Positions 45,716 to 46,161 of a stretch of 61,799 bases of DNA are shown here, in pieces. Below the pieces are notes generated by a model that had not been told where the DNA came from, made no database searches, and worked only from the letters and a program-made list of their open reading frames with translations. A program made the position numbers and the translations under genes. How positions within the stretch are numbered: position 1 is the first letter of the stretch; every line of letters starts with the position of its first letter. Source of the stretch: Euprymna scolopes (lineage: Eukaryota); assembly GCA_053919585.1 (NCBI GenBank), contig CM132811.1; one strand, given 5' to 3'.

Positions 45716-45760
45716 AGATTGAGATTGTCGGACTGACTTCCTCATCTTGGTTGTTATAGT

Positions 45761-45802
45761 CACAACGTTTCGGCCGTTTTACCCTCCGGCCTTCATCAGG
45801 TG
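45761..45802 (-). ncRNA. Minimal type I hammerhead ribozyme motif (inverted copy)
   Basis: Exact reverse complement of 46024-46065. Confidence 0.75.
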
Positions 45803-46023
45803 TTTTGTATCGAACTGGGGAACCGTTTGTTAGGAGTCTCGAACCCAACCCTTTATTATTATTACGGGGGAACCGTGTTTAGACGCCAGCTAGGCTCTGA
45901 AACATAGTTGCAGTTTTGAATGTTACTTTTTTTACTGCCTTCGTTCAGGATTGAACTCAGCACCTTTGGGTAACTGTAAACTTTGATACAACGTCTAGGA
46001 CCACTCGACCATATGTCACTAAA

Positions 46024-46065
46024 CACCTGATGAAGGCCGGAGGGTAAAACGGCCGAAACGTTGTG
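46024..46065 (+). ncRNA. Minimal type I hammerhead ribozyme motif (Penelope-like)
   Basis: CAC-CTGATGA-A-GGCCG(loop)CGGCC-GAAA-CGTT-GTG: conserved core, stem II, palindromic AACGTT stem III, and a predicted GUU site ending at 46062. Confidence 0.75.
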
Positions 46066-46161
46066 ACTATAACAACCAAGATGAGGAAGTCAGTCCGACA
46101 ATCTCAATCAATGAAAACACCTCATCTCAAAAATACAGACAATATATATATATATATATAT

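Follow-up and report, generated by a model that had tools for sequence, protein, structure and literature searches.

Penelope-like elements (PLEs) of the Penelope/Poseidon type that carry an endonuclease (EN+), such as D. virilis Penelope, Anolis PAc and Adineta Pen2a, are described as having a pseudo-long terminal repeat (pLTR) with a minimal hammerhead and the start of the open reading frame (ORF), an intron near the start of the repeat, an optional tail of 30–40 bp, an inverted 5'-truncated copy and an AT-rich target (relevant sections of PMC8557442, PMC3846280, PMC2377424 and PMC11167929), and non-autonomous PLEs are already known (PMC8557442). The element analysed here, E1 (45717-46141, 425 bp), lies on contig CM132811.1 of Euprymna scolopes within a stretch of 61,799 nt, the whole of which was analysed and is referred to as the window. 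The E1 family resembles these PLEs in each of the respects listed; it differs in that E1 is non-coding, in that A and B boxes of the tRNA type lie in the repeat, which the PLE descriptions cited do not include, and in the existence of short copies with a defined start. E1 is very probably a PLE-mobilised derivative of a pLTR. Its best explanation, in which we place moderate confidence, is a short non-autonomous pLTR copy of a Penelope/Poseidon-type retrotransposon, with a putative RNA polymerase III (Pol III) RNA that would be inserted by a Penelope enzyme acting in trans.

Other described systems share parts of this organisation. In Sm-alpha and Sj-alpha a type I hammerhead comes after a Pol III promoter of tRNA origin (PMC6765202, PMC2770079, PMC8490949), an arrangement that E1 appears to share; Sm-alpha, however, is reported to occur in tandem, its active ribozyme releasing monomers from multimers, and the parts of these reports that describe it mention neither a Penelope partner nor an inverted arm or tail. 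Metazoan non-LTR retrozymes are non-coding, bear hammerheads and have been proposed to derive from PLE pLTRs (bioRxiv 10.64898/2026.07.22.740005), and tandem hammerhead-to-tail units of 43 codons that belong to the E1 family in other records add to the likeness. Retrozymes are described as promoter-less direct tandem repeats (PMC7761336, PMC7229834, in the sections concerned), whereas E1 is monomeric and has promoter-like boxes and an inverted arm, and direct tandem hammerhead units were found neither in E1 nor in its relatives E2, E3 and E4. The TRIMp3 elements (Cassandra, Helenus, Ajax) are similarly short, non-autonomous and independent of long interspersed elements (LINEs), with a small-RNA-derived Pol III promoter in the terminal repeat (PMC10886601); in contrast to E1, whose repeats are inverted and unequal, they are described there as LTR elements with a primer-binding site, a polypurine tract and duplications of 4–5 bp, none of which is found in E1. 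Finally, tRNA-derived short interspersed elements (SINEs; SINE2) resemble E1 in their A/B-box head, unrelated body, 3' end common with the mobilising element and 300-bp size, but the 3' end of E1 comes from a PLE and not from a LINE, E1 has an inverted arm and lacks its own poly(A) or simple-repeat tail, and its head appears to lie inside the repeat of its partner. Taken singly, inverted pLTRs with hammerheads, non-autonomous Penelopes and hammerhead repeats with a tRNA head are known; no account of their combination, of a pLTR containing A/B boxes or of a PLE-mobilised SINE was found in the full-text literature searched, with most subscription journals outside its scope, and the E1 family may already be catalogued in a repeat collection.

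Arms, tail and hammerhead motif of E1

The arms of E1 (Table 1) are complementary without mismatch over 89 bp, and the insertion is young, since the arms are 100% identical. As the first-pass annotation of this DNA had stated, each arm contains a hammerhead motif, CTGATGA-A-GGCCG...CGGCC-GAAACGTT with a 3-bp CAC/GTG stem I; the core pattern occurs three times in the window against 0.02 expected, and none of 100 shuffles reached three. The motif agrees with the features of metazoan PLE hammerheads listed in the part of PMC4209133 used for comparison, that is, the CUGANGA and GAAA cores, the extra base before stem II, the G10.1-C11.1 pair, the palindromic 15.2-16.2 positions (ACGU in place of stem III) and the short stem I. 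The same report ascribed dual minimal hammerheads lying 100–700 bp apart on opposite strands to truncated PLEs in 2014.

Table 1. Coordinates of E1, its component parts and its relatives in the window (T4, run of four T)
Feature	Position	Strand	Remark
(TA)n microsatellite, left flank of E1	45683..45713		
Left arm	45717..45805	-	3' part of direct copy: hammerhead and first half of downstream stem-loop, without tail
Minimal type I hammerhead, direct copy	45761..45802, core 45799-45764	-	Predicted cut between 45764 and 45763; motif only
Body: pLTR 5'-untranslated region (5'-UTR) and start of reading frame	45806..45946	-	Homologous to E2, E3, E4
B box and degenerate T arm	45947..45957	-	
A box	46001..46011	-	
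5' end of direct copy	46012..46020	-	Putative Pol III start; near splice-acceptor position of E4
Right arm	46021..46109	+	Inverted, 5'-truncated second copy, head to head with direct copy
Minimal type I hammerhead, inverted arm	46024..46065, core 46027-46062	+	Predicted cut after 46062; motif only
AGATGAG/CTCATCT stem closing A/C-rich loop	46079..46127	+	Candidate reverse-transcription start site, by analogy (PMC11167929)
32-bp tail	46110..46141	+	Only on right arm of E1
(TA)n microsatellite, right flank of E1	46142..46229		
Solo short 3' fragment, E1 family	45272..45307	+	E=1e-4
Head-to-head pair of short 3' fragments, E1 family	48740..48861		Headless
E2, older relative	54149..54622	+	Inverted arm 54149-54291 (into body), head from ~54293
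E2 internal features	A box 54303, B box 54359, T4 at 54496	+	Body, decayed hammerhead, tail
E3, older relative	55735..56260	+	Inverted arm 55735-55803, head from ~55815
E3 internal features	A box 55825, B box 55886, T4 at 56024	+	Body, 21-bp subrepeats, decayed hammerhead, tail

Rfam models run on the window, on E1, on E2-E3 and on the two further loci L001 and L002 (see below) called no hammerhead or tRNA on any family member, E1 included; a match to GIR1 over E3 (E=0.0023), far under the model cut-off, was taken as chance. The consensus files for Naiad, Chlamys and Hydra in PMC8557442, where line breaks might mask a match, did not contain the exact core motif, and the Hydra-clade hammerheads listed in that report have a stem III of 3–4 bp, unlike that of E1. 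The motif was likewise not found in the full-text literature searched. The self-cleavage proposed in the first-pass annotation is doubtful, because the two ribozymes sit on opposite strands and an RNA from the head carries one minimal hammerhead; the schistosome minimal hammerhead is reported not to cleave as a monomer (PMC4209133), and hammerhead cleavage to be dispensable for PLE insertion in vitro (PMC11167929), in the passages of these papers that deal with cleavage.

The 3' ends of 13 copies placed on one profile fall at positions 313-320 (six copies), 335-338 (six copies) and 276 (one copy), and the headless pieces have 5' starts scattered from profile position 168 to 280; the seven hits outside the training set show the same split at the 3' end (four short, three long). 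Short ends lie within the A/C-rich loop and long ends right after the AGATGAG/CTCATCT stem, both strands of which are invariant in all six tail-bearing copies aligned. For an anole element, reverse transcription is described as beginning at two sites in an AC-rich stem-loop, the tail being the stretch between them (PMC11167929, in part). All three headed pairs of the window carry the tail on one arm only, and an inverted 5'-truncated copy, a tail of 30–40 bp at one end and (TA)n targets are given as marks of PLE insertion in the relevant parts of PMC8557442 and PMC3846280. The arms are 89 bp long in E1, ~143 bp in E2 and ~69 bp in E3, with different inner ends, and E4 has no inverted arm. A target-site duplication of E1 was not readable within its (TA)n flank.

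One frame through the arm is open in nine of 11 copies, with 5, 15 and 64 stops in the three frames (the copies are not independent), and a peptide profile of this frame matched 1117 and 2125 predicted proteins in two libraries (E<=0.001 for the 2125). The peptides retrieved, the best 243 of more than 2000 matches (P0121-P0363), look like read-throughs of genomic copies; among the first 120, the body start motif is present in 47, and 72 contain at least two units, spaced mostly 43 codons apart, in a ranking that favours such peptides. Three of the best 243 continue in frame beyond the tail. The run-on of one of them, P0123, shares 66% identity over 58 aa with P0364, a peptide bearing a reverse transcriptase (RT) whose motifs, compared by eye, most resemble the PENELOPE and PoseidonFr rows of the supplement alignment of PMC8557442; a search of PDB with P0364 returned weak matches to group II intron and retron RTs only. 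Because the arms are variable, the tail stands on one arm, the site is (TA)n and the arm frame leads into a Penelope/Poseidon-type ORF, E1 is assigned to the Penelope type and is neither a miniature inverted-repeat transposable element (MITE) nor LINE-dependent; the 3' end of the family had no match to either LINE in the window. In the internal part of E1 all frames contain stops and no autonomous PLE ORF (RT with GIY-YIG) was found; the ATG present in E2-E4 has been lost, and a stop stands where E2-E4 begin the frame.

Some of the peptides contain tandem arrays of the 129-bp hammerhead-to-tail unit, and such units could, by analogy with retrozymes, cleave as dimers. A hammerhead of another family lies 250 bp from E1 (46421-46388, minus strand), with CTGATGA, a 6-bp stem II, GAAA and a palindromic GCGC loop, without a clean stem I, and is probably the end of a different Penelope element. 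A further hammerhead family was seen at position 7134 (+) of L001.

The tRNA-like head and the 5' ends of copies

E2, E3 and the short 3' fragments were detected by self-comparison of the window, and a scan of GTDB contigs for the hammerhead core gave two loci, L001 (CAXXSI010000016.1) and L002 (CBDHDV010000339.1). L002 contains a fourth full member, E4 (2843-3192), which matched the E1-E3 profile at E=1.3e-45 and the profile of the internal part alone at 3.1e-27; the latter profile is without the motif that fetched L002, and E4 lies 2 kb from that motif. The internal parts of E1-E4 are 58–73% identical, with all six pairs scoring above 300 of 300 shuffles, and that of E1, the most distant copy, was recovered at E=1.2e-5 by a leave-one-out profile.

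The head of E1 consists of an A box (TGGTCGAGTGG, 46011-46001, minus strand) and a B box (AGTTCAATCCT, 45957-45947, minus strand) spaced by 43 nt, with the right arm abutting 9 nt upstream of the A box, in agreement with the first-pass annotation, which had placed the boxes about 42 nt apart and the 5' end of the head against the right arm. Pol III tolerates longer spacing between the boxes, and the A- and B-box consensus and the intron branch-point pattern were applied here as general background. An A/B pair with three mismatches is not beyond chance, 3.3 such pairs being expected per 33.7 kb; four of the five A/B matches in the whole window, however, fall inside E1-E3. YGGYNNANNGG stands 43–51 nt before the B box in all four copies E1-E4, a spacing usable in elements of the SINE type, this pattern having been drawn from E1-E4 themselves (for the generic consensus plus one mismatch, the chance per copy is 0.10–0.24). 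Among copies that are 58–73% alike, the variable positions of the A box change and the fixed ones are kept, and both boxes are present in P0219, a further copy read through in sense. The boxes of E1 are credible because they are conserved in four copies, and not from E1 alone. The head strand runs for 607 nt from the A box without a T4 run, which bears out the earlier statement that no T4 terminator separates the head from the left ribozyme, though 12–13% of 300-nt windows here are T4-free anyway (88 and 79 of 669).

Alignment of the heads with a conventional SINE head and three phage tRNAs showed them to be colinear, their extra bases being placed chiefly from the D arm to the variable loop (the anticodon-arm region), which does not support the suggested likeness to tRNAs with a long variable arm. 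The B box and T arm of E1 match a phage tRNA-Thr at 25 of 29 bases (E=8; blastn against phage gave chance-level matches only). With lowered thresholds, ARAGORN called the E1 head only at a level that yielded 107 calls in 33.9 kb, and Rfam found one of the five conventional A/B-box heads in L001/L002, and that one under its cut-off. Folding of the head, the body and the whole unit was no better than that of shuffles, and the body of the family had no similarity to that of the conventional SINE in L001 (78–290 of 300 shuffles as high). The body of E1 contains a second B-box-like motif at 45845-45835 (minus strand), which is probably part of a pLTR subrepeat; it was not taken for another tRNA unit farther downstream, because the headless L001 copy and the pLTR subrepeats have it too.

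Upstream of E4, a donor (AAG/GTAAAA, L002 2746), CTAAC, a pyrimidine tract and a terminal CAG (2839) delimit an intron-like stretch of 94 nt (L002 2746-2839) that ends 9 nt before the A box. Seven peptides (P0122, P0124, P0158, P0221, P0225, P0279 and P0319) run antisense through the intron-like stretch or the short exon and then into the arm at about the same point, as judged by eye, and the longer copies end at a second fixed point, ~125 nt upstream. Since a probable exon and intron, as is typical of a pLTR, precede the head in the longer copies, the head would lie inside the pLTR and not be a joined-on cap, and the full repeat probably comprises exon, intron, tRNA-like segment, ATG, hammerhead and tail. 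For the pLTR of Penelope itself, the section of PMC2377424 that treats it describes an exon of 46 nt and an intron of 75 bp that lie over an internal Pol II promoter. Of the original proposal, therefore, the PLE-mobilised non-autonomous retroposon is retained on the evidence of arm, tail, site and ORF, and the separate tRNA cap is probably to be given up in view of the probable exon and intron upstream in longer copies.

The short copies E1-E3 are a second class of 5' ends, with the arm junction 9 nt (E1), ~11 nt (E2) and <=21 nt (E3) before the A box. Fourteen of the 243 peptides run antisense across the 5' end of the head: nine join an arm within a few codons (five clear, four probable), two continue through the intron-like stretch and three, unrelated, were set aside (all by eye). 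[quoted passage not shown] The first bases of the E1 head (GTGAC, 46016-46020) are the same as those right after the predicted hammerhead cut site (46063-46067); this identity is possibly microhomology at the junction, and it was not seen in E2-E4.

Proposed mobilisation and competing explanations

In the mechanism that we propose, the pLTR would consist, in order, of a short exon, an intron, the A/B-box segment, a 5'-UTR, the ORF start, the minimal hammerhead, the A/C-rich stem-loop and the tail, and the boxes would act as an internal Pol III promoter in any pLTR, solo ones included. A non-coding RNA of ~300–400 nt would start a few bases before the tRNA-like segment and end at a T run in the flank; a Penelope protein supplied in trans would bind this RNA and nick AT-rich DNA, as published in vitro work suggests and the anatomy of the copies supports. 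The cDNA would begin at one of two sites around the stem-loop, to give ends with or without the tail, and a second, 5'-truncated cDNA would be joined head to head, to give the inverted arm in the pattern displayed by the copies. The new copy would retain the promoter and be recopied as a SINE would be. The hammerhead would be a passenger of the pLTR, its cutting probably not needed, and each insertion yields the inverted arm as a by-product that lies outside the transcript. E1 is young and yet without the ATG, which suits a non-coding source gene. With the promoter inside the pLTR, every inserted pLTR could act as a SINE-like source; the existence of a Penelope lineage with a working tRNA-derived Pol III promoter behind the pLTR intron, each inserted pLTR being such an independent source, is a tentative proposal to which, from sequence, we give somewhat less than an even chance. 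Pol III transcription of the family is plausible, since all four DNA copies have kept the boxes and the short copies begin closely upstream of the A box, and is the weakest step of the mechanism.

A number of results weigh against a Pol III-driven Penelope derivative. Across nine hammerhead copies 87.5% of positions were paired, against 19–43% in slid controls, with one pair changed on both sides, but this covariation is not significant (236 of 500 shuffles were as high, and no measure beat the shuffles). On the profile, some of the ends and the start of each of the four headed copies were preset as training limits, which leaves the arm junctions and the hits outside the training set as evidence; gene prediction biases the peptide set, and its junctions were counted by eye only. 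P0364 is without a GIY-YIG domain and without the arm peptide, the link from arm to RT runs in two steps through peptides of other records, full-length element DNA was not found, and a Penelope ORF is absent from the 61,799-nt window. ARAGORN and Rfam recognise none of the heads as tRNA, a cloverleaf is not favoured (z=0.43), the E1 head alone matches the profile of the other three only at E=0.34, and the A box of E1 was placed with the help of the pattern, the aligner shifting it. E2 and E3 carry a T4 run before the hammerhead. The intron-like stretch rests on E4 and seven short peptides with weak single scores, from a tblastn list that includes low-complexity noise, and that of E4 has no match in the window; the bases before the E1-E3 heads match the exon end and the intron end of E4 poorly (2–6 of 10). 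The putative Pol III start, moreover, falls nearly on the splice acceptor, so that the Pol III explanation and the Pol II one considered next are hard to separate.

According to the latter, which is rather unlikely but the most serious competitor, E1-E3 are ordinary solo pLTRs from Pol II RNA, the tRNA-like segment in their 5'-UTR is either a relic or a control element for Pol II, and the short copies arose by RT stalling or template switching at the splice acceptor or a local structure, or from a spliced template. The splice acceptor 9 nt before the A box of E4, the second fixed point at which longer copies stop, the T4 runs of E2 and E3 and the heads not recognised as tRNA all suit it, as do the internal Pol II promoter of Penelope, which overlaps such an intron (PMC2377424, in part), and the published attribution of opposite-strand dual hammerheads to truncated PLEs (PMC4209133, in part). 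It accounts less well for the retention of both boxes in copies just 58–73% alike, for the finding that none of the 14 antisense reads has a clear exon-head junction and four to five retain intron-end bases (by eye), and for a young E1 that has no ATG and a stop at the start of the frame, as expected of a non-coding source. A spliced origin of E2 and E3 is possible; the bases before their heads match both the exon end and the intron end of E4 poorly.

A chimeric SINE, in which an independent tRNA-derived head absent from the autonomous element was joined to a Penelope 3' end, is improbable: E4 and at least two read-through peptides share the exon/intron-like stretch directly before the head, against which stand the three of three headed copies in the window that begin at the head, the absence of a head upstream in P0202, which runs on into the ORF, the fact that autonomous element DNA containing the head was not seen, and the divergence of the E1 head, which differs most and may have been swapped. 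Far less probable again, and largely refuted, is a DNA MITE with a hammerhead-like motif in its terminal inverted repeats or host DNA captured once between two pLTRs. The inverted repeats of E1 are indeed perfect and pLTRs are reported to be able to move unrelated captured DNA (PMC3846280, in part), but the arms vary from ~69 to 143 bp with different inner ends, the tail is on one arm only, solo and tandem copies exist and the internal part is homologous in four copies; the constant arms and fixed target duplication by which the first-pass annotation would have recognised a MITE were not found in the family.

If the Pol III-driven Penelope derivative is real, it would be the PLE counterpart of SINEs, which depend on LINEs, and of TRIMp3 among LTR elements; the literature examined links SINEs with LINEs and has added short LTR elements driven by Pol III only recently, and a Penelope parasite would fill a third slot, as a high-copy, long-lived class of Pol III retroposons dependent on the Penelope RT/GIY-YIG enzyme. 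It would also offer a natural minimal substrate for work on a mechanism that is little understood, namely an RNA of 300 nt that has a defined start and can end at either of two places around a single conserved stem-loop; how the tail and the inverted arm arose could be read from thousands of insertions. A monomeric Pol III RNA without a partner ribozyme in cis would test the importance of the pLTR hammerhead. Repeats of the E1 family have entered public sets as thousands of translated false 'proteins' (2125 matches) and appear MITE-like to annotation pipelines.

Related loci and the surrounding window

L001 and L002 lie inside bacterial metagenome-assembled genome (MAG) records, resemble animal DNA in their microsatellites, SINEs, transposon remnants and low GC, and are probably host contamination. 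They contain conventional A/B-box heads with a spacing of 32–33 nt at L001 5924 (+), 5511 (-) and 1602 (-) and at L002 1652 (+) and 2222 (-). E3 has an expanded 21-bp subrepeat before its hammerhead (56030-56143), and related subrepeats occur in E4 and L002, so that subrepeat number varies between copies. In the window itself, a perfect A box at 49535-49581 (+) is followed only 25 nt away by a weak B-like box, with CCTGAAGAA ~100 nt downstream; this pair had no match to the E1 family profile.

The window is AT-rich, animal-like DNA with (TA)n runs, a 28-kb satellite and two LINE remnants. The satellite (16895-44831) consists of 633 copies of a 44-bp unit, ~97% alike, with recurring variants of 60 and 104 bp that suggest higher-order repeats. 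A LINE RT ORF of 585 aa (8947-10704, plus strand) begins at a (TA)n run, its nearest relatives being ~60% identical, with one at 88%, and a related 3' fragment lies at 47844-48401 (-). A broken LINE with an AP endonuclease domain, which we take to be RTE-like, occupies 58231-61261 (+). Inverted repeats of ~266 bp, 86% alike, stand 3 kb apart around an assembly gap (50359-50624 and 53590-53855) and are possibly an old DNA transposon.
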